From Marsupella aquatica (taxonomy: Eukaryota > Plantae > Marchantiophyta), in contig OZ316893.1 in NCBI GenBank assembly GCA_973895155.1, positions 14,476,645 to 14,540,644 on the forward strand: a DNA stretch of 64,000 bases, written 5' to 3'. Position 1 is the stretch's first letter; every line of letters starts with the position of its first letter. Under the pieces are notes generated by a model. That model searched no databases, was not told the origin of the DNA, and saw only the letters and a list, made by a program, of their open reading frames with translations. Below are positions 19,513-53,019 of the stretch, piece by piece. A program made the position numbers and the translations under genes.

Positions 19513-20737
19513 CTAATAATTTCCAATGCTAAAATGCCCAAATTCATCTATTGTTTGATCACCTAGAACACTCTGTATCTCGGAATTGATACCACTGGGA
19601 AGTTGCTCTTCAAAGGATGGGGGTGCAAAAACTAGGCTCAGTCTCAAGTTCAGTTTTTTGTAATCTGATTTTGCCATTATCTTTGGAGCATCGTCTAGTG
19701 ATTCTATCATTCCAACCTTTGGTCCATTTCTCCATATAAAATGAGTTGCAGGACGGACTGTTTTCATATATCCAGTCCTGCCGATCTCGGATCCAGAATT
19801 TTGTGAAAATGATAATACTACAGGGCTTCCTGTAGAAGCACTTGTAAAACCAAATTTAGTCTCTGATGAGCAATATAGAGGAGACATGGGAGGATTTGAA
19901 GCACCTGCCTTCTCTTCTTCATTTGCAGCGGTCTCAGGTACTTGACGATCATCCGCCTTTGCAAGTGCAATGTCTGACATTTCTCCCAATTCTACTGCAT
20001 CAATATTGCCTAGACCATCTGCGGTTGCCTTCCAATGTGCGTCCGATGTGGACGATGTAAGATCTGGGTCCGATTGGTGCATCCAATTCTCTACACCGGC
20101 AAAGGGATTTCTTGGTGGGTCGCCCTCAGGTCGACCCACAACATCGGCCAACCCCACACCAAAGTAGGGAATACCTACCACTTGTGTTCCACGTTCATCC
20201 AAATGTCGAGTGACCCTGTCGTCTGTGTCGTGACCCAATTCTCCTTCCTCAATATCATCTTCGCCCTGGTCTACGCCTTCTTTGGCACCAACATGCTCGG
20301 AAACCCCATCGCGGGCTCTACCAAATTTGGAACCGCCCATCCGGTCACTCATTATGGAAGGAACTTTCTCACAGAGAACCCTTCCATATGCCTGAGTGAA
20401 ATCATATTCATCCTCAGTGTCTGAATACGCAAAGCATTCTCTGAAACACAACAATGACACCTTCATAACCTGTCCTCCCGAGAAAAAGTCAAGTATAGTC
20501 TCCCCTTCAGCCGAAAAAAAATCAATAATACTCTGCAGCATACATTTTGGCTTAGCGTGAATATTCACAAAGCCACCTCTACTTCCCACCATCTCAAACA
20601 TGGGAGCCTTTCGTAAGACATCTCCAATGTGAAATGCCGAAGTTGACTTAGTCTCTGTCTCCTTACTTGTCTTACTCTTATTCTTATCTCGCTTCTCCGT
20701 CTTGTCTTCCACTTGGAAATCAGGGTCGATCGCCGAA
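19513..20737 (-). pseudogene. 3' part of the ParB-like/DNA amino-methyltransferase-like gene (SAM-binding region plus acidic tail)
   Basis: HAKPKCMLQSIIDFFSAEGETILDFFSGG matches the HPxxKPxxLxxxII...SxxGDxVLDPFxGSG pattern of beta-class N4C/N6A MTases. It joins in frame to 50134-51188 once the CACTA element and one TTG are removed. Confidence 0.75.
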
Positions 20738-23700
20738 TTGCACTAGTAGAAACCGGGGCAATTTAGACCAAACCTTATAGGACTAAGGCCACTAAGTCCT
20801 TTTTTACAACTTCAAATGACTCGGAACCATTGCACCGGTTCACATGAACACTACAAAAGACTTTGAGTGCTTTTTGGTTTAGGATAAGACTATGAAAAGT
20901 TTCCACGTACCCTACTTTGTGAAAGGGTGAACACTCTCGCACATGAGTGTTGTAGGGTTTAGTTGTGGGCCTCAATTTGATAATGGGCATATGGGGGGTT
21001 TACGTCCGCTATATTGAACACGTACAAACTCACTACATGTCTAAATGCCCTAATGTCTCATATACTCCATAGTGGGTTTAGGGGGGGTTTACGTCTCAAG
21101 GGTGGGCCGGTTATATGTGAAGGGTGTGGGTGGTCACCACTAAAGGGGGTTTAGTAGGGTTTATATGTCAAGGGTGGGCCGGTTAGGTCTCAAGGGGGTG
21201 GGGGTCACCAACATCCCGTTCTATTCAAGTTTGCCAAGCCAAGAACCGGGTGCACACATACCCAAGATTTTTGGGCTAGCATGATTTTCAATTCACAGCC
21301 GGCTCTACTTCACCAACATCCGGCTTTATTGAACTTTTCCAAGCCAAGAAAAATTTGCTGAAATACCCAAGATGGCCATGCAGTAACACTTCAATGTAGT
21401 GGTGTCTCACTTTGGGTGACACTCAACGGCTCACTCAAACGGTAAGGTTGAGTGGCTCCCCTTAATGACTTAAGTCCCCTAATCTAGTAAAGAGGCACTA
21501 AACTGGTCTTTGGGAGTGACTTTGGAGTGTTTGGGCCATCGTCATTGGACGCAAAACGTGAGGGGTCCAAGGTTCGGGGTTTTACGTTGGATTTAGGTTT
21601 TGGCTGTAGGGCTAAGAAGGTTGTGGCTGCTGCAACCTTCGATCGGAGCTAGTTGTGAGGGCTTCATTCTTCGGGGATTTTTGAGAGAAGGGCCTCTCAT
21701 TGTTGCACAATTCTCCTGACCCGCACTGCCGATGTGTTGTGGCTGCACCCAGAGCGACTTGGTGTTGCCATTTGTTTCAAGAAGGTTGTGCTACCATCGC
21801 GAGCTGTTGAGGAGAGGGCCAGTTGCTTGCAAAAGGATTTGTAGATTGTGTCGGAGGTCTAGATTTCTCCATTTCTACCAAGAAACGACGTGCAACAAGG
21901 CAATGTGGAGCGCAACGGCAATGTCCAGGGTAGTCCTGAGTGCTTAGGTCATTCCATTCCTTATGAGAAATGTCGTGCGGCAGGGCAATGTGCAGTGCAA
22001 CGGCAACAATGTCGAGGGCACTCCTTAGTGCTTAGGTTTTCAGTGAGTTGCAGTTCGAGAGGAGCTATGATCTGGGGACTGAGGCGCTGAGGGTTTAGCT
22101 GAGGGGAGGAGCTGTGATCTGGGAAGGTGTTGCGGTGCCAAGGTCTATTGTAAGGTGAGGTGATTGTTGCGGAAGTTTAACTGTAGTGGGTCCTTAAGGT
22201 CGCGGAGGCATTCAAAGGAGGCGTGAGTAGGGCGGCAATCGTTTGTTGCTGCGGAAGGAGGACATTGGAGTTGTGAAGGCGCTGTGGAAGGCGACCACTG
22301 CGGAAGGTGGACTGCAGTGGGTCCTTAAAGCTTGCGGAGGCATTGAAAGGAGGCTGAGCAGGGAGGCAATCGTTGCTGCTGCGGAAGGTGGACATTGGAG
22401 TTGTGAAGGAGGTCGTGGAGCTTAAAGAGCAGTTGCAAAATCGGGAGCCGGTTGTTTGTTAGGAGGAAGCAGTTGATAGTGCTGCCATTGGTTATCAGTG
22501 TCATCAGCCAAAGGTTAGTCCCGGCCATGCAGCTGAAAGTGCGCTTCTTTCATCCCTTTTCCAGCAACTTTAGTTCCACATTGTTTTGTTGGGTTGTCTG
22601 TTGAATACTTTCATTGCCTCTACAGGCTGAAGGTTACTATAGGCCCTGGCTTGCGCACCCACTCCTTACACTCATGCCCAAAAACCAAACAACAAGTAGC
22701 AGAGCTCAAGCAGATCCGCTCCGCTCTGTTCTCAGCTGGCTGCGTAGTAGCTACATCTCCTCTGGTCCATCCTATTTTGAGCAATGTCATACCTCCATAG
22801 CATACAGCTTGCCTGATTGAATGGTACATTAGGTTCAGCACATTCTCCCTATGGCTGAAGAGTTATGGAAAACCCCAACACAATGAAATTCGTTATGATT
22901 TGTCTTGGCAGTCGAAGCTGCTGAAATTGCCGATTCTGATTGGATTCGGTAGGAATTCAGAATTTGTTGAGTTTGTTTGTCGCTGGATATGAGTTATTCA
23001 AGACTCCATGATTTGAGAGAAGCCATTTAGCATCCCTTGTAGATCCTGGTACCATCTGACATTGTGAGGGCTCGAAAGCCTCAAGTGACCGGGCCATCGT
23101 TGTATGCAAATTTTTGTTGTTGTATTCATGTACATCCCTGCTTGGATGAGGCGTGGTGTTGCTTGTAATCATGTATTTCTTCACACTAGAAAAGCAGTCT
23201 GTCATATGAGGTTGTCGGGATTGTCTTCCGGTCAGTCATCTTACATCTTTGTGTTGTTTTGCGTTTCAGTGAAGGGCACTAGCAAGTAGCAAGAGCAGCG
23301 AGCTGGTGATTTGCACCTTAGGCTTGGGCTACGGAGGGAGTTGCTGCAGCACCACGACAGAGAACGAAAGCACGGGTAACATTACCACTATAATTGTTGA
23401 AGAAAATACCTTTACCTGCTGCCATTTAAGCCGAGTGCACCGCCTTAAGTTTAAAGATCCCGTTGCTGGTAAGACATCATGGCTACATTGCTTTTCGATG
23501 TTGTCCTCTGTCCTTTTGTGGGATTCAGCCTGAGCTAGCTGAATCCAATCCAGGAGTTGTTGCGCTAAGGTGAGACTTTGAGTTTAGGGTTGCTTGAGTG
23601 TCCGAGTAGGTTTTCTCTTTGCGTGGGCAGCTAGAAGGTAAGCTCGGGGGCTTTACAAAGGGTTAGTGTTGCGGACTTTCCCTCCTGGACGTTGTGTGTC

Positions 23701-26046: not shown

Positions 26047-26715
26047 AGGACCACTTGTCACACCGCATGCACAAACCAGAGACCATTGACCTATAACTTA
26101 ACACTTTGACTTGAACAGAGAGGATATTTACTTAAGATTTTGAATTATGACCAATTTTGGGTCCAGGGTTTAGGGTCAACAGTACATAACTTATCCTATT
26201 ATGGCTGCACTAAGTACAATATCCTAATTTAAGAGGCTAGCAAGCTCACTTAAAAGTCTCCTTTCAAAGATTGGAATTAATGGGCCATGTGATAACCTGG
26301 AAAAAGTGATTTCTGCCTAACTTATTTGTCTCATTCACTATCATAGCCTATTTAGGATGTATAAATTACAACCCTGATCACAGTGCTTGATACCAATCCT
26401 GTTCAAAAAATGCCTGTTTTACATGTCACGACTGTTATATGTGATTCAAATGCATTAAATCTTGTTGCAGATCTCCTTTGGTGAATCATAGCCACAAAAT
26501 TGAGGTGTAGGTGGAGCTATTGTACGAGGGGATCAGTTTTTAGTGTGGGCTCAACAAACCAAAAAGTATGTCTACTCTGCACATGTGTGTGAACATTTCA
26601 TTGCAGTAGCAATTGCCACTCTAGTCTATATGCTACACTGTACTTTTTGTACACTGCACTAAATTGTATTGTCTGTGCACTCTGCTAAATTGTACTATCT
26701 ATCTCATGCGTAGGC

Positions 26716-27396
26716 ATGGCACGCCCTAAAATCCGAGCCAAGAAGCGGGGGACAGAGGTGAGCAACACAGGTGTAGTTGGGCCAGATGGTAGTAACTTCT
26801 CCGCAAGTCAGATTTTCCAGAAGGCAGCTCATTGTTGTGCCATTTGTGACGATGGTGGTGGCTTAGCCATATGTGAGGGCCCTTGCATGAGGCATTTCCA
26901 CCTCAACCCGGAGTCTGACCTTGCTGCAGAAAACAACTGTCCAGGGGTGGGCCTCCCGTCAACACACCAGGGAGGCTGGATGTGCACTGATTGTTTGGAG
27001 AAGCAGGCTAAGTGTGCACAGTGTGGGAAGTTGGGGTCTTATGAGGGCTCTGTTGATGCTCCACCACTTGTTAGGAAATGCCCTGACAGATATTGTGTGA
27101 GGTTCTTTTGTTTTTCATGTTTGTCCGATCTTGCCACAGCTTGCCCACTTCATAAGTGCAAGGCATGTGGTCAGCACGATGAAGATTTCTGGGTGGACAT
27201 AGTCCACTGTGTTAGGTGTCCCACCATGTGGCACTTTCATTGTTTGAAGGAGCGTCAAGCAGAAGGCTATGCTTGTGACAGACACATCTATGATCACTCT
27301 GCACATGGTGTTGATCGATGGATCTTCTATTGTCATCGCCATGCCATAGATCCTACTTTGCACACTCCCATGAGAGATCACATTTCTTGGCTTTGA
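26716..27396 (+). CDS. Stand-alone EDM2-type multi-PHD-finger protein, 226 aa
   Basis: CAICDDGG...CEGPCMRHFH, CxxCGKLGS, CPLHKCxxC, CxRCPxxWHxxCL and the terminal YCHRHAIDPTLHTPMRDHI closely follow the PHD cassette of plant EDM2. Basic NLS-like N-terminus. Intact and intronless. Confidence 0.88.
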   Translation: MARPKIRAKKRGTEVSNTGVVGPDGSNFSASQIFQKAAHCCAICDDGGGLAICEGPCMRHFHLNPESDLAAENNCPGVGLPSTHQGGWMCTDCLEKQAKCAQCGKLGSYEGSVDAPPLVRKCPDRYCVRFFCFSCLSDLATACPLHKCKACGQHDEDFWVDIVHCVRCPTMWHFHCLKERQAEGYACDRHIYDHSAHGVDRWIFYCHRHAIDPTLHTPMRDHISWL

Positions 27397-27994
27397 ACCT
27401 GAATAATGTACATGCATAGTGCACCTGATGTGGATACCTTGGAGATTGCAGACATTCCAATTTTGAGAAGAAGGACCTCTGTAGGAGAGGATGCTTAGGC
27501 AACAAGTACCCTAAGTTCATTACTTGTTCCTGGGTACATGCCTTCAAAAACTCCCCTTAAGCCTTCTAGGAACTTTTTTAACTCTGCAATCATTTTGATC
27601 ACGACTTACATGACACTGCTTAAATTAAATCAGGACTTCTCATTATGAGCATATAAGTTACAAGGCTATTTAATTTGCGAGAATTCCCTTAAAGTGTACC
27701 AACATTTTGTATTCTCATTGAATGTCTGCCCATTTACAACATCTGTATGTGGCATCACAAAACAATTGCACTTGTCACCTTCAATATTGTGAAGGCACAT
27801 ATTCAAACTATGAGGTGCATGCTTGCAGGTGTCTAGTACGTTTGTCCCAATATTTCTCCCGTTTGGAATCGGAGCAGAGACTCACCAGACGATTGGACTG
27901 GACCAAGTTATAAACGCAGCATTTTAAGGGCCCTCCGATTATCAGGTGAACGCATTATCTTCCGGTCTGCAGTGATTAGGTGGCCCGTGTGTAC

Positions 27995-28843
27995 ATGGCC
28001 TCTAGGAAACGTACAAAGGTTGACCACCCGCCTCTGTTGGCTGGAATCAAAGCCATTTTGATTCCTGGCCACTATGGGTTCACCCAAGTGAGTTGGCCAA
28101 TCGTACAAAAACGATTCTCAGAGTTCCATGGGACTGAAGTCAAGGACATCACTCCACAGACTACACATGTTGTTGCGGGGACATGGCTGGATGTGATGAA
28201 CAAGTGGTCATGGTCCTTCATTGATTCTGCCATTACCAACCAAGGTCTAAAAGTAGTTGAAGTCTCTTGGCTGACCAATTCTGTTAAACATAGGTGTGTA
28301 CAGAGTACTGAGCAATATGAGTTGTGGGAGAGTGAGGAGGCCACTGCAGAGGCTTTGGCTGAAAAGGAAGCCTATGAAGTAGCGGCAGAGAAACCCAACT
28401 TTGCTTCTGTCCAATATGGACCTGTTGTCAACATAGGACACCATCCTATGCGTGCAGATGCTATATTGAATGAGCATGGCAAGGAGAGAAATACCATTAT
28501 GAAGGGGTTCAGTGTGGTATTTGCAGAAGAAGGAATTGGGGAGACTAAGTGCAGACTGTACAAGTCTATAGTTGTTGAGCTAGGTGGGACAGTGGAGGAG
28601 AGTCTAACAGAAACCTCCACTCATGTTGTAGGTCTGTCATACATGAAAATATGCAGAAAATTCTTTAAGACAACAGTGCGTGATTTTGTCATGAACAACA
28701 ATCTTTGGGTGCTTTCCCCTGATTGGCTTCTGGAATCAGCAACTAGAGGGAAGCGACAGAATGCTTGGGACTTTGATATTTTTGAGGCCTGGCCCTCCAA
28801 GATTCAGCGGAGATGTATGCTTAGCAAAGGTGGGAGAGAGTGA
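27995..28843 (+). CDS. Tandem BRCT-domain protein, about 282 aa
   Basis: Two repeats with THVV and W-L-x-x-S hallmarks (TTHVVAG...VEVSWLTNSV; STHVVG...LSPDWLLESA). Basic N-terminus RKRTK. Intact ORF. Confidence 0.85.
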   Translation: MASRKRTKVDHPPLLAGIKAILIPGHYGFTQVSWPIVQKRFSEFHGTEVKDITPQTTHVVAGTWLDVMNKWSWSFIDSAITNQGLKVVEVSWLTNSVKHRCVQSTEQYELWESEEATAEALAEKEAYEVAAEKPNFASVQYGPVVNIGHHPMRADAILNEHGKERNTIMKGFSVVFAEEGIGETKCRLYKSIVVELGGTVEESLTETSTHVVGLSYMKICRKFFKTTVRDFVMNNNLWVLSPDWLLESATRGKRQNAWDFDIFEAWPSKIQRRCMLSKGGRE

Positions 28844-29531: not shown

Positions 29532-32500
29532 TGTGGGATGGCTCAGTGTCAGCTAGTGTAGAGAAACATGACATTCTTTCGTTTAGAAGAGGAAATAGTT
29601 AGGGAAAAAGTTTTAGTGCTATCAGAGTAGCTAGGTTTAGGGCACTTAAGTAAGAAGGGAAGCTTAGTAGAGGTAAGAGGGAATTTAGTTATGCAAAGTT
29701 ATCTAGGGGTAAGCAAGTTACTATAGGAGGGGCAGGAAACTAGTCCGTCCTTAGTTATAATAGGCGACTAAGTCGGGACCGAAAAATGACCCGACACCGG
29801 ACATCTTATTTTTGGCTGATATTTCTCCCATGGGTGCTGGGAGGTCCCTAGGGAACCCTGAAAAAGTATGAAGTCAAGTGGGGTCTTAACCTAGGAGTTA
29901 TAAGTATTTTGGCAAAAATCAAAGTTACCAAATAGCGGGTCCCGGGAAAAATAGCTGATGGGTAAATGTAGGGGTTCCAAGTTTGGAAGTGGGTTAAGTA
30001 TGGTCCCCTCTATCCCTAGAAACTTGTGGGACAACTTTGTCACACTTGGTTACTTTTTGGGAGCATCTCAAAGTTGAGAAGAATTTTGGAAGACATAAAG
30101 ACTTGACCCTCTTTGCCTAATTTTAGAAAAGTTGTTATAGGGTTTTGTTTATATCTTAGTAAACCCGGACATAGTCCTATGTCCATAGAATCAGTGGAGC
30201 TACTCAGAAGTCCTTTTGGACTTATGTGTGAGTTTTGGAGGGGGGTCCAAAATCGCCCCAAAATGCTGTTTTTCCAAAAAAAAATGTATTTTTTTCTAAG
30301 TGTAAACCGCGTGGGCGACGATCACGCGGCGAGCACGAGGCAAGGAGGAGCGAGCACGAGGCAAGGAGGAGCAAGCACGAGGCTGGTGAGGACGTCAAGC
30401 ACCGGGAGGCTGTCCAAAGGTGCTGCATGATTACTTGAGGAATCAATTGAGCACAAGGGCGGCTGAATTGAAGGAAGGGCGGCTGAATTGAAATGGCTGC
30501 TGCTGATTGAAGAAGCTATGGCTGCTGAGAAGGAAAAGAGCTATGGCTGCAAATTAGGATCGCTGCTGGCTTTGAATTGGGAAGGCTGCTTGCTGCTATG
30601 ACAGCTGCACACTAGATTAGAGGTGCTCCTACTAATCAGGCACGAGATGCTCATGAGAATTGGCTGGCTGCTGCCTTGATGCTGCTGAATTGAATGATGC
30701 TGCTGCTAGCTGCGAAATTGCAAAGGTGGGCAGCTACGAAATTGAGAAGAGAGACCTGCTTGACTGAGAAGGAATCAAGCTATGGTTGCTGCTGCTGTGC
30801 TTCAAATCTGCTGTTGTTGTGCTGTAAATGCGCTGATGTGACTGTGCTGCTAGCTGCGAAATTGACTGTGTTGCTAGCGGCAAAATTGAAGAGGTGGGCT
30901 AGCTGCGAAATTGACTAGTCTGGCTGTGAGCTATGGTGGCTGTGAAATTGAGGGGCTGGCGGCTGATCAGCTGGACTGCTGCACAAGAAAGAATCCAATA
31001 GAGAATGCTGTGGTTTTAGATTGAATTCACGAGAGAGAAATGGCTGCAAACATTGCTGTCCTTACAATTTCTTCATAAGAAACATGAGTATAATGAGAGT
31101 GCTCTCCCCTCATGACACGTGGAATCCCCATAAGGGGCATGTAAGGTAAGTGTAATCGGGCCGCCGCTTACACCCGCTTTACACCAAAAACAGGCCTTGG
31201 GAGAATGGGCATAACTTTGGCTAGAGGTATCCGTTGGGGCCCAAATTTTTTTGTGCTGAGTTAGGGGAAGATAAGGCACCCCCTGGTGAAGGTGGAACCC
31301 CAGAAAAGTAATCACTCAAATATATTTTTAACCGAGGCCACGAGGGAGTCCCGACAACTTGCAAACCAAAGTCGGCATAGGGGAATGAATACCAGATTTA
31401 GGGGCTGACCTTTCTTGCACCCATACCACTTGAGTTAGGCTCTAGAGAAGGGTACTTACCTTTGGCCAAAGGTGTAAGGCCATCAAGTTAAGAAAAGTAA
31501 ATATAGGGGGTAGTTTACTTAGGGTAGTAAAGGGGTTACAAGTAAAATAAGGCCAACTTTGACTAGGCACAACTTGAGACTCACTCACTCTTTTTGCGAG
31601 CTTTCAAGTGGGTTGGTAAGCTGGTGAGGAGGACCATAAGTGGGAGTAGGTTTGGAAGTCAAAGCATACCACTCATGTGTGGCATATTCCAGGGCTTGGA
31701 AGGAGGCAAAATAGCAAGTAGTAGGGTGGGCTATGAACTATAGAGTTGGACTTTGTGTGTTAGGAGGACTTGGGGGAGGTATAGTTGGACCCCAGGTCAA
31801 GCTTGGTGTGATGTGGAAGGAGATAGTATATAAGGAGGAAGTTTTCATTTGTTAGGGACCGGGAGTCTCATCTCTTAAGTGAAATCTCTACCTTGCCAAG
31901 GTAGGGCTAAGCTTGAGAAAGGAGAGGTGGTCCATGCTTAGTGTGGAGAATGTGTAGTGAACTTTTGTTGTAAAGGTGATGCAATAAAAGGAGACTTACC
32001 AATCTTCATTGTGACCATTAAGTGTGAGTGCATTTGAAGTATATGAGAGCAAGAGAAGAGTCCATGCTATGGTATAATCTTGGTCTAAGCTTGAAGGGGA
32101 TGTGCTAGTACAAAACCAAGGCCAAGGAGGCAAGGTTAAGGTATAGCATTACTTTGAGACTTAGAGAGGATTATAGCTTGAGGGTGGAAAGTACTTTGCT
32201 TGGTGTGTGGTGTTAACAAGAAGTAAGAACAAGAGGAAGAGTCCTTAGATAGAGGAGCCTTCTCTAGGGCTCAAAGGGGATGTGTGGACCCAAACCAAGG
32301 CCAGGGGGGCAAGGTTGAGGGGTAACACTACTTTGAGGGTCTTGAGGAGACTTAAGCTTGAAGAGGAAAGTACTTTGGGTTCTTGGGTGTTTGTGTGAGA
32401 ATCTACTCTAAGGTGACAGCTTGGAGCGGAGATCCCCCTTGCTGATCCTTGGAGTAGAGGAGAGGGGAAGGGGTGAGTACAAAAGTAGTCAAGGGGACTA

Positions 32501-32668
32501 CCTCTCTAGAAGTGGAGAGTTGAAACTACTTATGTATGGAGTGATTGGACATTGTAAGCACACTTCAGAAGTTTTGTCAATCCTTTGTGACCTGGTATGA
32601 CATGGAGCAGGTATTAGGTAGTCTTTTGGGGAGAAAAGCCGCTTAAGCTCCTTGGCAAGTGTTTGACA
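29532..32668 (+). repeat. 5' LTR, 3137 bp
   Basis: TGTGGGATGG...GTTTGACA, repeated at offset 9294. Contains short internal repeats (gagcacgaggcaaggag x3 near 30330) and a diverged duplication at about 32084-32198 and 32263-32377. Confidence 0.97.
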
Positions 32669-32688
32669 TAGAGTCCCACCCTTGTTTT

Positions 32689-32706
32689 TGGCGCCGCTGC
32701 CGGGGA
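32689..32706 (+). promoter_or_regulatory. Primer-binding site, tRNA-Asp type
   Basis: TGGCGCCGCTGCCGGGGA, one mismatch from the Athila-type TGGCGCCGTTGCCGGGGA. Located 20 nt downstream of the LTR end. Confidence 0.85.
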
Positions 32707-32812
32707 CAACTCTTTACAGTTTTTGTTGGAGTGGAGCCACAAGACTTGGAGGTGTGTTTGCAGGTTTGCTGTTCAAGAGAAGAAGGGAGATAAGAAGGTG
32801 ATTGTGAGTGGC

Positions 32813-35800
32813 ATGCCCACTACAAGGAGTCAAGCACTAAAAGAAGCCTCTCTTAGTTTCAACTTTGGTGACCAGTTGGAGCAACCAGATTGGGTGGACA
32901 TTCATTTGCAAGCTGAAGCGGAACCTGGTGTAGGGTGGAGTGATACATCTTCTTCCACTACCAACACAAGTGAAGATCAAGAAGCAGCCATGGTGGTGAC
33001 TCAAAGAGCAAGATTTCAGTACAAGACATTCCATGGCAAGCCCAAGGAGGATCCTGATGCTTGGTTGGAGGACTTCATTGGGACAGCCCAAGCCAATGGA
33101 GAGTTTGATATTAAGTTGACCACTTTGGCGGGGGTCTTGAGAGGAGAAGCAAGACCTTGGTTCAATAGCCTATCAAATGCCATCAAGAATGATTGGGATG
33201 CCTTCAAGCTAGCATTCTTGCAGGAGTTTAGGAAGGTGGGAGAAGAATCGGAAGCTCTGATCAAGATGGGAGAGATCAGAATGGGATCCAAGGAGTCAGT
33301 AAGGAGGTTTCTGCAAAGGTTTCAAAGGTTAGCTACCAAGCTTGACCCCAGACCAGTAGACTCCATGTTGTTGGCTTGGTTTGTGGCAAGCCTACCCAGG
33401 AAGATGGGTGTCTCAGTAAGGCAATCTCACCCTAATACGTTGGATGAGGCCATTGAGGCGGCTCAGTCTTATAGGAGTGCTGAGATCTCTAGTTCCAAGA
33501 GTAGGAGAAAGAAGAAGCGATTTGCTTATAGTGATTCTTCTTCTAGCTCAAGTGAATCAAGTAGTTCAGTTGAGGATACTTCTGAGTCGGAATCTGAGGA
33601 GAGTAGTTCCAGTTCTGATTCAGAATCTGATTCTGAGGAGGACTCCGAGAAGAAGAAGAAGAAGAAGAAGGCAAAGAGAAAAAGCGACCAGAAGAGGAGA
33701 GCCAGCAAGAAGAAGCCAGGTGGTAAGCACCACAAATCTGCAACCTTCAACTTGGTGGAAGGTTCTACACCAGCAACCAAGGAGAAGAAGGTGATGGATA
33801 ACAAGATGAGTGAGATCACCAACCAACTCAAGGCCCTATCAGTTCACTTTGCTGGTGTGCAACCTGATAGGAGAAAAGTGCCGGTGAATAGAGCCCATGT
33901 ATGGTGTGTCAAGTGCAAGAGTTTTGGCCATACACCTCAAGAGTGTCAAGGTTGGAGGAATCAAGTTCAGTATGTCAATGAAGAGTCCAACGATGTTTAT
34001 CAAGCAAGTGAAGTGGTGGACTACTTCTATGAAGAAGCCCCGGAGATGGTGTACCAGATTTCAGGAGGCCCAAGAACTTTGCAAGGAAGACCAGCTCCAC
34101 CCATGGCACCTCAACTGATGCCTGGTCTTCAACCAAGGATGGTGGATCAAATGGGACCTCAAGGACCTGGGGGAGTGGCAAGAACTACCGTGGTGATCTG
34201 CTGGAACTGTCAAAAACCAGGGCACTATTCCAACAGTTGCCCCGAACCAAGGAGGCAGGGACAAGGAGCTCCCTATCCTCTTTGTGCTGTGTGCAAAAGG
34301 GAGGGTCATACCACAGCCAACTGTCCTATTGGATCTGCTGCCAAGATGATGATAGGAAGGATAGAAGCACCACCACCAGCGGTTGCCAAGGCTCCCGGTG
34401 AAGCCACAGTGAACTTCTTGAGTATGGAGTGGCAAGAGGAGGCCAAAGATGGAGTGACACAAGTTGCTGGTGGGGAGAACCAGCCAGATCTACCAGGAAT
34501 GGAGACACCTGAGGAGGAAGCTGTGTGTTACAAGGTGTCTACCAGGTCCACAAGAAAGAAGGAAAGAGTGGAAGAGAGGAAGAAGAGGAAGGAGAGAAAG
34601 GAGCACTCAACGGAGTCACCAATCGAAGTTGAAGTTGGAGCAGAAGTTCAAGTCCCACCAGCTGAAGATAGTGACTACAAGAGAGACCATCCGAAGCTCT
34701 TCTATCCCAAGGTGAATGAGGAAGTCAAGAGGCAACTAGAGGAGATGGAGGCTAAGGAGCATCAAGAGGCCATCAACAAAGACCTGAAGGTTGCTAAAGC
34801 TTTGAAGGAAAAAGCTGAGGTGGAAGAGAAGAAAGAGACCAGCAAGGTACCCTCTTATGACATCAAGAAGGATGTGAAAGATTGTTTGGTTACTGCTACA
34901 GTGGGGCAGCTGATCAAAGACAACCCTTTGTATAGGAGGCAACTGAAGGAGATGTTGGTAGGAAGGAGAAGAAGGAAGCTTCCAAAGGTTGGTACCCCAG
35001 CTGATGTGATGATGGTTTGTGAAGACCTTGGAGCACCTGAGATTGATGTTCAAGTAAATGGGTGTGTACTCTCGTATGTACCAGTTGATGGAGGCTCAGG
35101 TGTGAATATCATGATTGAGGCTACTGCCCAACAACTAGGTTTCAAGAAACTTCAGCCAACAGCAAGGACAATGAGGCTAGCAAATGGAGCAAGAGTGCTA
35201 CCGGTGGGGACTCTTACTCAAGTACCTACTCTCATTGGGGGGCAGGAGTTCTTGTTGAATTACTTGGTGATGAGACCAGCAAGGCCATCTACTTACCCAA
35301 TCTTGATTGGGAGGCCTTGGCTATATGGAGCCAAAGTAGTGTCTGATTGGGGCAAGAAGGAGTTTAGGTTTGGCAAACCAGCCACTTCAGTTTCATGGGG
35401 TCATGACAAGCATCAAGGAGAGACTACTGATGAGTTGGATGAATATGATTCTGAACTTTCCGATGAGTTGAGTACCAAATCTGAATCTGATGAGGATGAG
35501 GTATACATGTTGAACATGGTGAGCCAATGGACTGAAGAAGAAGTGTTTGGAGAGGAGCAAGAGCAGGAGGCTCTTACCAGCCATTCACCTCTGCCCAGTC
35601 TCAGTGAAGTGACCAGTCTCGAGGAGGTGAAGCAGGCTGAGACCTCGGCCAAGGAGAGCAACCAAGAAGACACTATCACAATGGCTCAGGAGGTTGATCA
35701 GACCAGCAAGGGTGCTGCCCAAGTTGAGATCAAGACAAGGAGTAATGACCAGAGTTTAAAGGCTAAGCACTTAGCCTTGTTAAAGCTCAAGATAAAGGAG

Positions 35801-38785: not shown

Positions 38786-38812
38786 GTGTGTTTGCGGGGA
38801 CGCTGCACACTT

Positions 38813-38822
38813 AAGTAGGGGG
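38813..38822 (+). promoter_or_regulatory. Polypurine tract
   Basis: AAGTAGGGGG, ending 3 nt before the 3' LTR. Confidence 0.75.
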
Positions 38823-38825
38823 CTA

Positions 38826-41800
38826 TGTGGGATGGCTCAGTGTCAGCTAGTGTAGAGAAACATGACATTCTTTCGTTTAGAAGAGGAAATAGTTAGGGAA
38901 AAAGTTTTAGTGCTATCAGAGTAGCTAGGTTTAGGGCACTTAAGTAAGAAGGGAAGCTTAGTAGAGGTAAGAGGGAATTTAGTTATGCAAAGTTATCTAG
39001 GGGTAAGCAAGTTACTATAGGAGGGGCAGGAAACTAGTCCGTCCTTAGTTATAATAGGCGACTAAGTCGGGACCGAAAAATGACCCGACACCGGACATCT
39101 TATTTTTGGCTGATATTTCTCCCATGGGTGCTGGGAGGTCCCTAGGGAACCCTGAAAAAGTATGAAGTCAAGTGGGGTCTTAACCTAGGAGTTATAAGTA
39201 TTTTGGCAAAAATCAAAGTTACCAAATAGCGGGTCCCGGGAAAAATAGCTGATGGGTAAATGTAGGGGTTCCAAGTTTGGAAGTGGGTTAAGTATGGTCC
39301 CCTCTATCCCTAGAAACTTGTGGGACAACTTTGTCACACTTGGTTACTTTTTGGGAGCATCTCAAAGTTGAGAAGAATTTTGGAAGACATAAAGACTTGA
39401 CCCTCTTTGCCTAATTTTAGAAAAGTTGTTATAGGGTTTTGTTTATATCTTAGTAAACCCGGACATAGTCCTATGTCCATAGAATCAGTGGAGCTACTCA
39501 GAAGTCCTTTTGGACTTATGTGTGAGTTTTGGAGGGGGGTCCAAAATCGCCCCAAAATGCTGTTTTTCCAAAAAAAAATGTATTTTTTTCTAAGTGTAAA
39601 CCGCGTGGGCGACGATCACGCGGCGAGCACGAGGCAAGGAGGAGCGAGCACGAGGCAAGGAGGAGCAAGCACGAGGCTGGTGAGGACGTCAAGCACCGGG
39701 AGGCTGTCCAAAGGTGCTGCATGATTACTTGAGGAATCAATTGAGCACAAGGGCGGCTGAATTGAAGGAAGGGCGGCTGAATTGAAATGGCTGCTGCTGA
39801 TTGAAGAAGCTATGGCTGCTGAGAAGGAAAAGAGCTATGGCTGCAAATTAGGATCGCTGCTGGCTTTGAATTGGGAAGGCTGCTTGCTGCTATGACAGCT
39901 GCACACTAGATTAGAGGTGCTCCTACTAATCAGGCACGAGATGCTCATGAGAATTGGCTGGCTGCTGCCTTGATGCTGCTGAATTGAATGATGCTGCTGC
40001 TAGCTGCGAAATTGCAAAGGTGGGCAGCTACGAAATTGAGAAGAGAGACCTGCTTGACTGAGAAGGAATCAAGCTATGGTTGCTGCTGCTGTGCTTCAAA
40101 TCTGCTGTTGTTGTGCTGTAAATGCGCTGATGTGACTGTGCTGCTAGCTGCGAAATTGACTGTGTTGCTAGCGGCAAAATTGAAGAGGTGGGCTAGCTGC
40201 GAAATTGACTAGTCTGGCTGTGAGCTATGGTGGCTGTGAAATTGAGGGGCTGGCGGCTGATCAGCTGGACTGCTGCACAAGAAAGAATCCAATAGAGAAT
40301 GCTGTGGTTTTAGATTGAATTCACGAGAGAGAAATGGCTGCAAACATTGCTGTCCTTACAATTTCTTCATAAGAAACATGAGTATAATGAGAGTGCTCTC
40401 CCCTCATGACACGTGGAATCCCCATAAGGGGCATGTAAGGTAAGTGTAATCGGGCCGCCGCTTACACCCGCTTTACACCAAAAACAGGCCTTGGGAGAAT
40501 GGGCATAACTTTGGCTAGAGGTATCCGTTGGGGCCCAAATTTTTTTGTGCTGAGTTAGGGGAAGATAAGGCACCCCCTGGTGAAGGTGGAACCCCAGAAA
40601 AGTAATCACTCAAATATATTTTTAACCGAGGCCACGAGGGAGTCCCGACAACTTGCAAACCAAAGTCGGCATAGGGGAATGAATACCAGATTTAGGGGCT
40701 GACCTTTCTTGCACCCATACCACTTGAGTTAGGCTCTAGAGAAGGGTACTTACCTTTGGCCAAAGGTGTAAGGCCATCAAGTTAAGAAAAGTAAATATAG
40801 GGGGTAGTTTACTTAGGGTAGTAAAGGGGTTACAAGTAAAATAAGGCCAACTTTGACTAGGCACAACTTGAGACTCACTCACTCTTTTTGCGAGCTTTCA
40901 AGTGGGTTGGTAAGCTGGTGAGGAGGACCATAAGTGGGAGTAGGTTTGGAAGTCAAAGCATACCACTCATGTGTGGCATATTCCAGGGCTTGGAAGGAGG
41001 CAAAATAGCAAGTAGTAGGGTGGGCTATGAACTATAGAGTTGGACTTTGTGTGTTAGGAGGACTTGGGGGAGGTATAGTTGGACCCCAGGTCAAGCTTGG
41101 TGTGATGTGGAAGGAGATAGTATATAAGGAGGAAGTTTTCATTTGTTAGGGACCGGGAGTCTCATCTCTTAAGTGAAATCTCTACCTTGCCAAGGTAGGG
41201 CTAAGCTTGAGAAAGGAGAGGTGGTCCATGCTTAGTGTGGAGAATGTGTAGTGAACTTTTGTTGTAAAGGTGATGCAATAAAAGGAGACTTACCAATCTT
41301 CATTGTGACCATTAAGTGTGAGTGCATTTGAAGTATATGAGAGCAAGAGAAGAGTCCATGCTATGGTATAATCTTGGTCTAAGCTTGAAGGGGATGTGCT
41401 AGTACAAAACCAAGGCCAAGGAGGCAAGGTTAAGGTATAGCATTACTTTGAGACTTAGAGAGGATTATAGCTTGAGGGTGGAAAGTACTTTGCTTGGTGT
41501 GTGGTGTTAACAAGAAGTAAGAACAAGAGGAAGAGTCCTTAGATAGAGGAGCCTTCTCTAGGGCTCAAAGGGGATGTGTGGACCCAAACCAAGGCCAGGG
41601 GGGCAAGGTTGAGGGGTAACACTACTTTGAGGGTCTTGAGGAGACTTAAGCTTGAAGAGGAAAGTACTTTGGGTTCTTGGGTGTTTGTGTGAGAATCTAC
41701 TCTAAGGTGACAGCTTGGAGCGGAGATCCCCCTTGCTGATCCTTGGAGTAGAGGAGAGGGGAAGGGGTGAGTACAAAAGTAGTCAAGGGGACTACCTCTC

Positions 41801-41963
41801 TAGAAGTGGAGAGTTGAAACTACTTATGTATGGAGTGATTGGACATTGTAAGCACACTTCAGAAGTTTTGTCAATCCTTTGTGACCCTGGTATGACATGG
41901 AGCAGGTATTAGGTAGTCTTTTGGGGAGAAAAGCCGCTTAAGCTCCTTGGCAAGTGTTTGACA
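38826..41963 (+). repeat. 3' LTR, 3138 bp
   Basis: Near-identical to the 5' LTR; the ORF-track peptides are identical in both. The only difference noticed is one extra C near 41885 (gtgaccctgg versus gtgacctgg). Confidence 0.97.
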
Positions 41964-46192: not shown

Positions 46193-49100
46193 ATGGGGGA
46201 AGAGGGTGATGACATGGAGACAGACATGGGGCTTGGAGAGTGGGGTGAAGAGGAAAGATTGGATATGGATGGAGACCTAGATGCAGGGGGCTCACAGAAA
46301 AATGCACCTGTGCAAGATGCACAGGGCCCTCATCAAGTCCCAGGTAGGTGGGCAGCTAGAGAGAAATCACATAATCCATACCTTAGAAGGAGCCAGAGTT
46401 ATTGGCAAGGGACGCCTGATAATTATGATGATGACTATGATGGAGCAGAAGATGGATGGGATGAATATGAACACCCAGAGCGTGGTAGAGACGGGTACAG
46501 AGGGCAATGGAAAGGTGAGGAGGATGATTGGACAAGTAAGTGCCTTGTGCTAGTGATTTTGTGATGGTAGTAGAGATTTAGCTCAATATGCACTTATCTG
46601 ATGTGTAGCTAGGGCAAAGAGTTTATCTTACAGGTCCATGAGTGTGGCATGTACCTGTTGGTATGCAGACTCTGATTGGGACAATCACGAAAACAACAAA
46701 GGCCATCCACGTTCAGATAGGAGGCAATCATTCACAGGCGGGAGAAACGCCCCTAATTCATCAAGACAAAGCAATAGGACAGGTGGTCCAGAACCATCTA
46801 TGCACCAAGGGAGAGGTAACTTGGTCATTGCAGAATTGCTCCGAAGTCCATTGTATATTTGGCAGTGGGATTTATGATTCATACTTACCTAATGTAAGTG
46901 ACTGTAAATGGATCCTGTAAATGTGCAGGGACTCCAGGGAGGTTTGGACAATGCAATCCAGGCCGTGGGGGGAGATCAGGCCGTGGAGGGACCCCAAGCC
47001 GTGGGGGGACACCAGGCCGTGGAGGGACACCTAGTAGCGCTTCAGGGAGTACCAAGGCAGGAGACAGTAACAAATTTGGTAAAGTAGAAGTGAATTCCGA
47101 AGGTTGGATAACTCCCACATGTGATGGTAAGAACCGTTGGCATTCTGACCTAAGAGGAGAAGTATTGCGTTGGTTAGATTTGAGCATTACAGAGTTTAGG
47201 AGTCAGAACAAAGCTGATTGGGCTGCTATCTGCAAGGACATTCTTGAACGGTGGGACTATGTTGGTAATGATGGTAAGGGCCCAGTTGAAGATTGCATAT
47301 CAGATTATGCAATGAAGATTTTGAAACAAGAGAGGCATAGGTTGAAAAGGATGTGGATAGACAATGGTTCTAACAGGAGAATGCCACCACCCCCATCATT
47401 GGAACTGGATCAATGGACACGGTTAATCAAAGGGTTCATGTCGGAGGCTGGACAGAGCAAGAGTGAACTAATGTCAAATGCTCGAGGCAAAGTGAAACAC
47501 CTTTCACAAGCTGGGAGAGGAAGTTATGCTCCAGTGAAAGAACAATTGGTAAGGCAGTGACATGCCTGATAGTAAGCCTCAAACTTATCATCTTGCTACC
47601 ATTATTACATTTTCATTGACAATCAACACTTGGTTTCATTCATATGTATGTTGATGTGGACTGCAGAAGAAATTGACAGGTGAAGAACCATCAGCACAAG
47701 AAGTGAGAGAGGAGTTCATGAAACAAAGGAGTGAGGTGACAAGTGTGACTTCCAAACAGGTGATTATGTTGTAATTATGTATGTTCTGTGACTATTTGGC
47801 CTTGAGCATCAGAAAGAAATGTAGTAGGAAGTAAGCAACCAGTTCTTGGGGACAGTTATCTGAGATATGTAAGCTGTGTTATGATAGGGAACTGTTACAA
47901 CTCTCACAGAGATGTGTGAACGGTTGAAGTCATTAGAGTGTGGACTCCCTCGAGTGGAAAGTAAATTGGCTGATCGTTTGGATATTGTGGAGGCATCTGT
48001 AGCGAACCTTCTTGCATCAGTGGAATCTAATTTCAAGCTTGTGATTGAAAAATTGGGTGGTTCCCAACCAAACAATGAGGGCAACATTGTACAAAGTGTG
48101 CCCTTGTTAACAAAAAAGGGAATTGGAAAATCTGACACAGGTATGGAAATGACACCAGCACATTGTTCATTGTGTCCTATGTTCAAATGTTAGAAGTAAG
48201 TTTTCATGAATTGAGTGAATGGTTTGAATGCAGGAAGAGTGGAGGCAGAGAAGGACCCTGTAATCAGTAAGCAGAAGGGCAAGAAGGTTGCTGAGACAGG
48301 TAACCTGCTATGATCCAGTACATTACATTTGAAAAGTGCATGGAGTTTTGTGAAGCTTAAGCCGGTTGGAGGTAATCTTTTCTGTAAGAACTGGTTGGAT
48401 GAACTGGGATCTGAAGTGACATCATGATTGATGTATCAGGTGATTCAAAGAGCAATAATGAAGAAGATGTGCCCAGTGCCTCAGTGACCATAGCCAAGGA
48501 GGTATCAAGTAAGCTGATGCTTTAAATTCCTCTATATGAATGTTGAGCAACAATTCAGTGGTTAATAGATTCAACCTGAATATTGTGGTGTGTTTATTGA
48601 TCAATAGAAGCAGACATGGAGCATATGGCAATGGCAAAGAAGGGGAAGAAGGCTGTTCATAATGGTAAGGAGATAGTGACAACTTTGTGGTTGGTGACAT
48701 GTACATTTAGCACATGTGATGAGTGATTGACTTATGTTGGACATGACACTGAATTGTAGTTGATGCAGAGTTGACAGACTCTCAACCAAGTGGGAGTAGG
48801 GTGAAGCGACGTCGAAACTTGGGAGCAACATTGGATGCAAGTAAGATTGTAGATGCTTCAATTGAAGCAAGTACAATGTTGGCAGATACTGAGATGATGT
48901 CGCAGGGAAATCCTACTACACAATCAGAAGTGTCAAATATGGATGCAGATTCTTTGAAGAAGAGTGTAGCCAATTCTTGATCACCAGCACAAAACACTCG
49001 TGCCAAAGTCATGACTCGCAACCAAGGTATGAATAATGTCATGTATAAGCCACCCAGGAAAGCCAAGAAAAACAGCCAGGGTAAGGTGGAGGTGATAGCC

Positions 49101-49360
49101 ACAGCAGAGCCAGTCCATAATCTTCTATCATGGGAGGATGACTCGCAGGTATGTGTGGGTACAGGCATTTTGCGACCGAATCATGCAAAATTCCATGGCA
49201 AAGTGGTCCCGGATGACCATGTAGTAGTGTTGTTGACTACAGTGATTGTATCTGATTGTAATTTGCCATTTCCGAATAGAGACGATGATCCACCTCAGGA
49301 AATAATTGCAGATGCAGTAGGATCTCTTGTGCTCTAGCCATCAGAGTGTGTTAGTCTGTA
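46193..49360 (+). CDS. CACTA TnpA-like second gene, multi-exon, possibly degenerate at the 3' end
   Basis: Series of plus-strand exons with GT-AG junctions: acidic N-terminus, RGG repeats, a helical domain (LKQERHRLKRMW...DQWTRLI...SELMSNAR), a coiled coil, and a C-terminal domain VGTG...FHG...LPFP...DAVGSLVL ending in a stop where Trp would be expected. Confidence 0.65.
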
Positions 49361-49809
49361 GTAACTGAATGCAAGTGTAGATAGAATCATGTGAATTGTG
49401 TCACATTTTGACATTGCCTTGGAAAGATCCAAGAAATATCTGTACCAGTTTTTCCATTTGGTAAAAAGGATGAAGGAGACGTTGTGTGTGACATTGATAT
49501 TTCTGAATTCTGTATGTATGAAACAAGTGATTGATGTCAAACTATGGCTCTATGGTGATTGTCTATGATACTTGAATCTATTTTATCATTTCAGTATTAG
49601 TGTGTATGGTATAGAGGAATACTTTGTGACCTTCTTTGTAGTCTATGAAGTTTGAATCTGTGAATTCATATTAGTGTGGTGAACTTATAGAGTGAGTTCA
49701 TTCCAAGTACACAATAAAACATGAATGCAATATGTTATTTGTGCACAAGAGTGGGTTCATTCCAAGTAGTATAGTGGGGTCTTCATCACTCATATCCAGT
49801 TGACATGAA

Positions 49810-50100
49810 AGACTTATACATACCCCACAAAGTATATTTAAAGACTACCCTCCATAACCTTTTTAGTCGTTCCCAACGACTCATCATCGCAGCCCATAAA
49901 AGACTGAAAACGACTCACCAAAGCTACCCACACAAAGACTAAAATAGACTGAAAATCCAGTCTATTAAACGACTTATAAACCAGTTCTATAAAGGACTCA
50001 GTTGATTATAGTAACAAAACATACGACTCGCAGTCCTATAAAGGACTGGAGTCCTTCCCAGTCGTTTCCAAGTCGTATACGGTACTGAATAGTCGTTTAA
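49810..50100. repeat. CACTA subterminal repeats
   Basis: More than ten short (A/C/G)GACT or AGTC(G/C) cores (aaagact, aacgact, agtcgtt) in both orientations next to the right TIR. Fewer copies lie near the left TIR (20778-20895). Confidence 0.65.
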
Positions 50101-50133
50101 TGGGGTCTAAATACCCCCCGGTTTCTACTAGTG

Positions 50134-53019
50134 TTGTAAGAAAATTTGCAATTAAATCCAGGCCTGAACACTTGCTTCCAATCAAATTTCTCCTCAGTGG
50201 TGATTCCTGCAAAGATTATCTCCTCCATACCACAACTGAAAAGTAAGCCCTCTGGAACTGGTGTATCACTCCGTCGATAGCTCCCGTAGTCGACGTGTAT
50301 GTCCATTCCCTTTTCATGTTGCAATTTCCTAAGGGCACTCAAAATGTTTGCAGCAAGTGGCCCCGGATGCACAGTCATGACAACAACAATTGTTGGATTT
50401 CTTGGAAGATCCACAATGTATTGCAGTAATGCAATAATTTCAGCATCGGTCCAAACATGTTGTCGGAGCCTACTGAAGTCAACAATGGCAAGAGGACACA
50501 AAGGCGAAGGCTCTTGTAGCATTTCTGGAACGGTCGTCTTCATCAAATTCTCACTAAAAAATGTCAAGAAAGGCTCCGTGCGAGAACGACCAATCCCACC
50601 AAATTCTTTACAATACAACCCATCTAGTCTGACCATCAGACTTTGTGGGAAACTCTCCTTGACCACATTCTTCTTCAATGAATTGTTGAGGTAAACCTCA
50701 CCCGCTGCTCTCCTCAATTTTGTCATCTCAAGCTCAGATTTCAAGGAAGGCAACAATATCACCAGAGACTCCCAAGATGTGCCAACAGGAAACTTCTCAC
50801 GATACTTTTCCACGAAATAGCCAATAATGACTGTTCTCAATTTGGACATTATCTTGATTGTAAGGGCCAAGTCTCCCATTGCGACAAGCTCTGATTTGTT
50901 GGTGATATCCTTCTTCAGCAAGACACGCTCCTCTTCAATGTCCTTCAAGATCTCAATTATCTGTTTGCTACTAATCTCTCCTTCAAAGCATCGAAAGGTA
51001 CCGGGAGTGATCAATTTTGGGGGTCTTGGCCCTCCATACCCACCAGCCCCGTCTTGGAGCTTCCCACTCAACCATTTTGCACACACGTTCCGCCATAATT
51101 CAAAGAGCTCATCTTCGGCAAAAAGTAACCAATAAATGCTCTTTAGGCTTGACTTCCCCATTGTAACCTTTGCCAGGGCAAACCAATCCTGCATATCCAA
51201 TGGACTTGACATTAGTTTCAGGGTACAATGCATATGTTAGAAAATTTATACCTATGTTTGAAACAGGCTAAGCCACCTCGCCCCAAGGGTGTGGCGAACC
51301 TCTACATCTAACCGCAATTGACTGAAACGGAACTAGGGAATTATTCTTAGAGAGACTAGTCTAGGTTGCCTCGCCCTGAGGGCGAGGAAAACATTTGCTT
51401 TAATCTTCTAACCAAGGAAAATAAGAAAAGGCAGCCTCGCCCTTGGGGCAAGGCAAACCTCTACCATTGACAATCTTTAAACAAAGCGGATCAAGAATAG
51501 TTTGCGTTGCTCTAACATGTACCTGATAGTTTTTCCTGTCTATATTTTGATTGGTCCCAATCCCTGGACGCGGCGGTTTCCTGCACTCCTCAAACTGCCT
51601 TCGTGCATGAACAATAGTCTCTAAAAAACAAGACTTAAATTGCATAGTATCATTGACAGCATTCGATAAACTTGAATGCTCAACCAAAATTGTCTTTGGA
51701 GTGAGGTCAGATAGGATCCTTGCTTTCCTATACTTTAGTTTGTTGGCAAGATCTGTCAGCTTGGCGTCAGTCTCGGCCCACCCTTGGATCCATTGGGCAG
51801 CTCTTGCAGAATGCTGGCCACTGATGGCAAGGAATTGGATCTCATGCTTCTTCACACCAATCAAAAACTCTTTCCTATCCTGAGGTGTGTTGTCATAATG
51901 AAGCAACTGTTTAGTGCTCTCGCGATACGGAATCAAATCAGCAACTTGTGGTTCCTGTCCAGGGTTTTTCATCATAGACTTTGATATCTCCATTGCATGC
52001 GAAAGATTGAACATTCGATATACAAAAATGGCCGATGGCGGATTAATACTTTTTACAGGAATATCAAAAACTTCGCGGATGCCAAAAGTATAATACTGCT
52101 CAATATTACGCAAAACCTCTTGGCCTTTGAGCACATCATCTTCTTTGGGTCCTTCTGTCGGACACATATCATCCTCTGGATGCAAGACAAAGTTTGAAGT
52201 TGACCCTGACATTGGTTTTGATTTTGCAACCTTTGCCTTCTTTGTTTGCTTTTTTTGGGGGCCCTCATCGTCTTCATTTTTTTTAGCCATCTTCTTACGG
52301 CGTGAACTCCCAGATTGTTTCTCTTGTTGAACAACCGGCTCTTGAAGCTTTCGTTTCTTCTCTGTCTTTGATTGCACACTTCTTTCCACTGTCTTCTTTC
52401 TCTCCTTTGCCTTATGCTTTGCTTCTTTTTTCTTCATCTCTGAAATCCACGTCCGGCACGCGGCCTCTTGAAACTCTGGACAAAAAATGAAACTCTTGTC
52501 GATTGCTTGCTCGTATGAAAAATGTGCCTTATCAATCATCCTTTGGACTATCCAAGTAGACGGAGGGTCCACACTGTCCGCATTGTCATGCATGTGCTTC
52601 TTTACGTAGAGAAATCCAAACACTAGGTCAACTCCACTTATTTGAGAACGCGTCTTCTCAAACATCTGATCAATTGTTACTCCATCTGGGAAGAATCCCA
52701 TATCAGCTACGCTTATCTCCAATCGAGCCATCCACTCAACATTCAGTAAAGTCAAGTAGAGTTTTATTGGCACTAGAAGTCTCATCCACTGAGATTTCTC
52801 ATTGGACTCAACAATAATCGTTGCATTGCGGTTGTTGTCCGTGTTCACAAGGACGACTGGACCTAGAGTAACAATTGTCTTGCGGTCATTCAATTGACTT
52901 GTGAGGCCCTTGAAACAAATCAAGAGACTGCCTTCCGCCGACACCCCAACTTCTAGTGCCCATCTAAATCCTGGAGTATCTTGGTCAGGGAAAACAAAGT
53001 CCTTGATATCCTCGTCCAT
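50134..53019 (-). pseudogene. 5' part of the ParB-like/MTase-like fusion gene; exons 53019-51523 and 51188-50134; interrupted by CACTA
   Basis: ParB/Srx-like segment FDIPVKSINPP...YRMFNLSHAMEISKSM...FLAISGQHSARAA after a Lys-rich linker. Phase-0 GT-AG intron 51522-51189. The second exon has a strand ending LAIVDFSR at the position expected for MTase motif IV. Confidence 0.7.

Follow-up and report, generated by a model that had tools for sequence, protein, structure and literature searches.

A 64,000-nucleotide stretch of the liverwort Marsupella aquatica (contig OZ316893.1, positions 14,476,645 to 14,540,644), hereafter the window, carries a large Sola-type DNA transposon, and one minus-strand gene of this transposon has been split by a CACTA/EnSpm element. 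Nested insertion of an ordinary kind accounts for the split, and we regard the anatomy of the nested elements and the split gene as nearly certain. When rejoined, the pieces are predicted to encode a protein that combines a ParB-like domain with a beta-class amino-methyltransferase fold. The usual catalytic motif is missing, and the protein therefore likely binds and shields its own transposon rather than carrying out standard DNA methylation. An earlier note on this DNA, made from the sequence alone, had recognised the split gene; the ParB-like domain and the enclosing Sola-type element, neither of which it named, explain what the gene is.

One gene split by a CACTA element

The CACTA/EnSpm element lies on the plus strand at 20741-50133 (29,393 bp), and the first 18 of 18 bases at its two ends are identical in inverted orientation. 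Its CACTA termini in short inverted repeats and its 3-bp target duplication (TTG at 20738-20740 and 50134-50136, supported by empty-site contigs) are those of CACTA/EnSpm elements. It encodes a Tnp2-family transposase (PF02992, E = 1.3e-59, with DUF4218 and DUF4216) from 42285 to about 46500, which is broken by stops and a frame change. Excising the element together with one TTG leaves an open frame of 759 codons, 351 from 51188-50136 and 408 from 20739-19516; adding the 499 codons of the preceding exon (53019-51523) gives a minus-strand gene of 1258 codons. These are the totals of about 499 and 759 amino acids given in the earlier note, which had proposed that one gene in two halves rejoins exactly in frame with no stop. 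Its linking of three open reading frames (ORFs) into a single gene stands, with the correction that the last ORF extends up to 20739 rather than 20712.

Evidence for the uninterrupted gene came from the contigs of four sequencing runs (X1, X2, X3 and X5, among eight runs listed), and the empty site was present in X1, X3 and X5. Run X1 yielded a single contig of 1675 bases (depth 479.9; we did not take read depth as copy number) in which letters 1-725 correspond to 20016-20740 and letters 723-1675 to 50134-51086, so that the two halves overlap by exactly three bases, the length of the TTG duplication. In run X5 a 1107-base contig joins 20415-20740 to 50134-50917 with the same three-base overlap, and seven contigs of run X3 stop matching at 20740, their few remaining letters (median 14) being those found after 50136. 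No empty-site contig was found among the matches listed for run X2.

A homologue search against 50%-identity representatives recovered 74 relatives of the middle piece and 14 of the protein encoded by the preceding exon (hereafter the exon-2 protein). Collinearity was read on 10 homologues picked from a family set of 103 proteins, and eight of these align to the 51188-50136 half and then to the 20739-19516 half, in that order, the other two being too short. The earlier note had called for uninterrupted paralogues; uninterrupted copies were seen both as collinear homologues and as insertion-free contigs. Calypogeia fissa and Riccia sorocarpa, both liverworts, are the only named organisms among the family matches, most of which are unnamed.

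The two exons are separated by a probable phase-0 GT-AG intron at 51189-51522, which contains three copies of a palindrome described below. This intron had been predicted from the sequence and is supported by homologues: four of the 10 chosen proteins read across it, namely P0012 and P0016 (Calypogeia fissa gene models), P0023 and P0096, of which the last two belong to one 90% cluster. P0096 (1009 amino acids) is a single ORF that spans both the intron position and the insertion site. All 12 of the ORF-called homologues listed have valine, whose codons start with GT, where the donor lies, and beyond that point their similarity is lost. A metagenomic family member, locus L001 (29% identical), is interrupted by a GT...AG intron at the corresponding site.

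The 499-residue first part is probably incomplete, with the gene starting upstream of the ATG at 53019. A conserved-looking phase-1 acceptor stands at 53052/53051, which would extend the exon to 51523-53051, and in six homologues with longer N-termini (P0003, P0004, P0009, P0013, P0014 and P0102) a pattern resembling an acceptor can be read by eye in the translations, just ahead of the first domain. We suggest a candidate upstream coding exon at 53801-53969 on the minus strand; splicing its best-looking donor to the 53051 acceptor would produce a stop.

Predicted domains and their altered motifs

Database searches by sequence returned little. Pfam gave no match for the ORFs at 50100-51236 and 51403-53079, and the 3' part of the last exon matched PF01555 below the cut-off (E = 0.0016). 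NCBIfam gave weak matches only (DndB, weak, in 2 of 20), a phmmer search of the 3' half against the PDB gave no matches, and a profile search with the exon-2 protein gave only lysine-rich noise. A metagenome scan with the ParB alignment produced 44 pattern matches and no relatives. The corresponding scan with the methylase alignment produced 14 loci, of which one, L001, is a true family member (1.8 kb, too short to show neighbours). The other 13 loci, and eight viral loci, match motif X/I only, and DPPY/F is present in 18 of these 21 ORFs. We rejected the metagenomic and viral loci as donors of the gene, as they are distant.

The exon at 51523-53051 encodes an N-terminal beta-rich domain, a lysine-rich linker and the ParB-like domain. 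For the first of these, a narrow structure search gave weak PH-like matches (Z up to 5.0). Residues 316-460 of the structural model of the exon-2 protein match the ParB N-terminal domain (Z = 10.2, root-mean-square deviation (rmsd) 2.2, 94 residues aligned), with agreement from Foldseek, and we accordingly predict a ParB/Srx N-terminal fold, which is followed by a helical region. The ParB box reads SGQHS in 20 of 21 proteins and lacks the arginines of G-E-R-R, the register being taken from the motif and the fold together. In Caulobacter crescentus ParB, R103 and R104 of this box are described as required for CTP binding (PMC8367383). Separately, the ParB-like part (51523-52149) scores 0.95-0.96 to fungal clusters, some of them annotated as DUF3723, and we note this as a lead only; DUF3723 may be a ParB-like domain. 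It has been reported as a conserved passenger of Starship elements, of unknown role (bioRxiv 2021.12.13.472469).

The last exon encodes the methyltransferase fold. Its 5' part (50136-51188, minus strand) contains a helical region and the first half of the fold, with D-F-S-R at the position of motif IV, and its 3' part (19513-20739, minus strand) contains the motif X/I half, an acidic low-confidence region and a conserved C-terminal stretch. In the model of P0096, in which the predicted local distance difference test is mostly 75-95 over residues 290-750, residues 463-756 match CcrM (Z = 17.6, rmsd 3.7, 221 residues aligned). The next structural matches are M.RsrI, M.PvuII and rotifer N4CMT, again with agreement from Foldseek; solved beta-class entries occupy ranks 1-18 with Z scores of 14.7-17.6. 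A sequence profile match to M.RsrI crosses the insertion junction (E = 1.4e-6). The model shows the permuted Rossmann fold in which motif IV precedes motif I, and a beta-class amino-methyltransferase fold split by the CACTA element is therefore predicted. This agrees with the earlier proposal that the motif IV and motif X/I halves lie on opposite sides of the insertion in beta-class order.

The motif IV half proposed earlier is present as a position in the fold, and it is not the canonical motif: the catalytic [DNS]PP[YFW] pattern (DPPY/SPPY) occurs in none of the 103 family proteins, and the family mostly has D-F-x-R there. Among 32 proteins found by pattern, a set that includes near-duplicates and fragments (homologues being 30-60% identical), the first residue is aspartate in 31 and the fourth is arginine in 28 and aromatic in one; D-F-S-R itself occurs in 14. 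Motif I reads DFFSGG in 11 of 13 proteins, one residue shorter than the F-x-G-x-G of bacterial enzymes, and aspartate is kept at the M.RsrI position in eight of nine. As [DNS]PP[YFW] is missing from all 103 proteins, any methylase activity is putative.

The Sola-type element and its palindrome arrays

The gene's host is a Sola-type DNA transposon at 17675-59967 (42.3 kb, or 12,897 bp without the nested CACTA element). It has 22-bp terminal inverted repeats (17675-17696 on the plus strand, with the right copy at 59946-59967) and a 4-bp target duplication, ACAT, at 17671-17674 and 59968-59971. We also considered a TA or 5-bp duplication and rejected both, the ends being symmetric only at 17675/59967. 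On the plus strand, opposite the split gene, stands a DUF7869 transposase at 55670-59374 (PF25273, score above or near the cut-off) with 34 homologues, in which three acidic motifs are kept in 29, 28 and 26 proteins, respectively. DUF7869 is a domain associated with Sola transposases, and we regard this gene as a putative DDD transposase of Sola type. Published descriptions give Sola elements a 4-bp duplication, terminal inverted repeats of at least 11 bp and, mostly, a length of 2-9 kb (PMC10741241); the ACAT duplication and 22-bp repeats found here agree with the first two. In 16 contigs of run X3 and six of run X5, loose ends show the left flank running straight into the right flank, and X5 shows this at 59967 also; these insertion-free contigs may derive not from this exact site but from further copies of the repeat that flanks it.

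The third gene of the element is a broken FCP1/NIF-like HAD passenger at 18146-19180 on the minus strand (PF03031, E = 4.3e-10; start uncertain). FCP1-like proteins usually have D-x-D as their phosphatase motif. This passenger has D-L-N there, which may make it a third non-canonical cargo domain.

Inside the CACTA element lies a plus-strand Ty3/Gypsy long terminal repeat (LTR) retrotransposon (29532-41963; LTRs 29532-32668 and 38826-41963; 5-bp duplication GATTG). The two 3.1-kb LTRs match at all 3137 aligned bases and differ by a single gap; the gag-pol frame is open over 2037 codons, and this insertion is very recent. As the Ty3 element sits inside the CACTA element and the CACTA element inside the Sola-type element, the order of events was Sola-type, then CACTA, then Ty3.

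The Sola-type element carries two different palindromes. The first, of 19 bp, has 11 copies between 51276 and 53701, spread over introns and a 65-bp tandem array (53218-53587); 0.10 matches were expected, and none of 100 shuffles reached 11. The second, of 21 bp, has seven copies between 55014 and 55527 (0.00 expected), six of which lie upstream of the transposase in a 73-bp tandem array. Both are confined to the non-coding DNA of the element and occur nowhere else in the 64 kb, and the arrays stand between the two divergent genes. The observed/expected CpG ratio is 1.12 in the 73-bp array (55010-55540) and 0.79 in the 65-bp array, compared with 0.44 in the transposase and 0.23-0.42 in the nested elements. 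This could reflect protection of the arrays, or simply a CG-rich motif and recent duplication.

Possible roles of the accessory protein

The CACTA element jumped into the accessory gene of one Sola-type copy, and this insertion likely killed the gene in that copy. We infer that intact copies, once spliced, would encode the ParB-like and methyltransferase-fold protein, that its ParB-linked part may, like ParB at parS and as has been proposed for algal elements, recognise the palindrome arrays of its own element, and that the methyltransferase fold may serve as a DNA- or base-binding module. The protein would thereby shield or activate the element, an anti-silencing role suggested by analogy with VANC. 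An accessory factor of this kind, binding its own palindromes with a non-canonical activity, is the reading that we prefer, and we judge it about as easily wrong as right. In its favour, both motifs are kept across the family but are non-canonical throughout.

Several points weigh against this reading. Loss of the ParB arginine box means that parS-type clamp loading may not occur, and the spacing of the arrays could arise from plain tandem duplication. Linkage of the gene to a transposase is seen in this element only, none of the other retrieved loci being long enough to show it. D-F-S-R is equated with DPPY by strand order and range offsets: when the family was aligned by profile to bacterial enzymes, motifs V-VIII and X-I were matched (probability 97%) but D-F-S-R did not fall on DPPY, and the global mode of the same alignment was incoherent. 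Residues on the S-adenosylmethionine (SAM) side are partly kept (K-P, D-F-F-S-G and an aspartate as in M.RsrI), and these, with the retained first aspartate of motif IV, fit a live enzyme.

The last of these points leads to the first alternative, in which the intact protein is an active N4-methylcytosine (4mC) or N6-methyladenine (6mA) methyltransferase whose motif IV is unusual and whose ParB part directs it to the palindromes, where it marks the element as self. The predicted beta-class fold is complete, aspartate is kept in 31 of 32 proteins and the SAM side is partly kept. The same function has been proposed for a protein of the brown alga Ectocarpus (PMC12477816), permuted clades with unusual strand-4 motifs have been noted by Iyer et al. 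(PMC4738411), and 4mC is reported from a liverwort (bioRxiv 2021.02.12.428880). However, CcrM and N4CMT are described as using the Asp/Ser and the carbonyl of the first proline of motif IV, the proline carbonyl holding the target amine (PMC10406627), and here no family protein has [DNS]PP[YFW], so that this proline is absent. The aromatic fourth residue is also missing in 31 of 32 proteins and motif I is one residue short relative to the bacterial enzymes. We consider an active methylase of this kind unlikely, though far from negligible. A related and rather doubtful possibility is that bryophyte Sola elements encode a ParB-guided enzyme with a previously undescribed D-F-x-R active site, which deposits 4mC, 6mA or a different base modification on the arrays and thereby keeps the element clear of host silencing. 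If this were true, land plants would have a second source of bacterial-type DNA marks, this one carried by transposons and separate from Marchantia DN4MT1.

Alternatively, the protein could be a transposition cofactor of the TnpA type that bridges or compacts the element at its internal arrays, with no epigenetic effect. Both domains are conserved without canonical catalytic residues, the arrays lie between two divergent genes, and the ParB-like part scores 0.95 to fungal DUF3723 clusters, which, as a lead only, would link it to a Starship passenger. The arrays, however, are internal rather than subterminal, at least 4.4 kb from the nearest end in this copy, and the published size of most Sola elements (2-9 kb; PMC10741241) would leave little room for a required 4-kb gene. 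This explanation seems to us distinctly improbable.

It is very improbable that the split copy remained under purifying selection, or that it is expressed whole through splicing of the CACTA element. The transposase has stops at 57100 and 58961 and frameshifts near 58100 and at 59020-59100, and the FCP1-like gene has stops at 19012 and 18490, whereas no stop or frameshift occurs in the 1258 codons of the split gene. With lesions spread by length, the chance of none in six is P = 0.030 (none in seven, P = 0.017), the insertion being left aside; counting the insertion as a lesion gives P = 0.11 or 0.068. These are the four, two and no lesions of the earlier note, which did not list a 24-base in-frame deletion at 18680 in the FCP1-like gene that is missing from other copies. 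Its suggestion that the split gene had stayed under selection longer is not borne out, given P values of about 0.07-0.11 with the insertion included and the pattern of substitutions. Taking the window base as derived, 10 of 14 coding differences between the X1 majority and the window change the amino acid, against a neutral expectation of 76%; these 14 are the best-supported sites among those listed, beside a further 814 and 245 rows. The substitutions of the split copy fit neutral decay. Whole expression would also have to contend with a 29-kb insert, itself carrying a nested retrotransposon, within an exon, and with a possible extra stop at the first splice junction. Finally, the idea that the join came about through misassembly or coincidence has practically no probability, and it is refuted for the gene by the empty-site contigs and collinear homologues together with the 18-bp inverted ends and the 3-bp duplication on both sides, even though none of the contigs listed (rare variants being dropped) bridges the CACTA-gene junctions of this copy.

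The ParB plus methyltransferase accessory design is already published for Sola1-1_Ec32 of Ectocarpus (PMC12477816). That element is described as 21.5 kb long, with a 4-bp duplication, 282-bp inverted ends and an opposite-strand gene for a 1104-residue protein with ParB-like and predicted N4C/N6A methyltransferase domains, and the best match listed for its transposase is Sola1-1_PPa_tp. Self-binding and self-modification are proposed there, and similar green and red algal proteins are cited. Our element resembles it in being a large Sola-type element with a 4-bp duplication and with both predicted domains in one gene opposite the transposase. It differs in its bryophyte-type host, its length (12.9 against 21.5 kb), its inverted ends (22 against 282 bp, with other terminal letters), its additional FCP1-like gene and the family-wide non-canonical motif IV, the Ectocarpus protein being compared by its published description only. 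Brown algae were not represented among the named homologue matches.

In the red algae Bostrychia and Chondrus, the Plavaka (EnSpm) accessory genes PAG2 and PAG3 provide a second parallel: a ParB passenger stands beside tandem inverted-repeat arrays, self-binding has been proposed, and the passengers also include an N6-adenine methylase (bioRxiv 2025.02.11.637652). As described there, Plavaka differs from our element in belonging to another superfamily and in encoding ParB and the methylase by separate genes, fused to a 2-oxoglutarate oxygenase and to a SET domain, respectively. VANC of VANDAL elements (PMC5735166) is likewise a transposon accessory protein with candidate target motifs in internal tandem repeats; the protein appears to be unrelated, and the anti-silencing activity reported for VANC is here only predicted.

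In predicted fold and motif order the protein resembles CcrM, M.RsrI, M.PvuII, M.BceJIV, bdelloid N4CMT and Marchantia DN4MT1. Unlike these beta-class enzymes it has no DPPY/SPPY, a shortened motif I and only 7-14% identity, and it is ParB-fused and transposon-borne. Marchantia DN4MT1 is reported as a host gene that keeps TSPPY (bioRxiv 2021.02.12.428880), a comparison made by description. A ParB N-terminal fold ahead of a beta-class methylase fold and palindromic candidate sites recall the ParB/Noc CTPases and a phage protein (locus L021), with the differences from ParB/Noc that S-G-Q-H-S replaces G-E-R-R and that there is no ParA partner. The phage protein (L021:771-2081) is a ParB_N and N6_N4_Mtase fusion with an intact DPPY, a prokaryotic form of the same domain order; its ParB gave no sequence match to the ParB-like part (E = 0.21).

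What is new, as judged from sequence comparison, is the bryophyte-type family and the apparent family-wide loss of both the catalytic motif and the ParB arginine box. We found no description of such a gene in bryophyte Sola elements in the literature that we searched, although Repbase, Bao et al. 2009 or Iyer et al. 2011 may already contain one, and the sections of Iyer et al. (PMC4738411) that we drew on list no such land-plant clade. The altered active-site motifs of both domains suggest one of two things, a catalytically dead protein that shields DNA by binding it or an enzyme with a new kind of catalytic site, and either outcome would bear on how transposons resist silencing. As bryophytes are genetically tractable, the question is testable.

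Several further features of the window were recorded. ORFs of the CACTA element include NSD-like PHD fingers (26689-27396, below the cut-off) and a BRCT domain (27980-28843, E = 3.2e-13), which are possible chromatin-reading cargo. The N-terminus of the DUF7869 transposase (55670-56600) consists of about three repeats of a small domain, and many of its homologues have PF26133. The Sola-type element itself sits within another repeat of 70-75-bp units (17600-17674 and 59968-60500). Several long plus-strand ORFs at 13787-16305 (GC content about 55%), with no Pfam match above the cut-off, likely belong to another repeat. A broken long interspersed nuclear element with endonuclease, reverse transcriptase and zf-RVT domains lies on the minus strand at 3497-7073.

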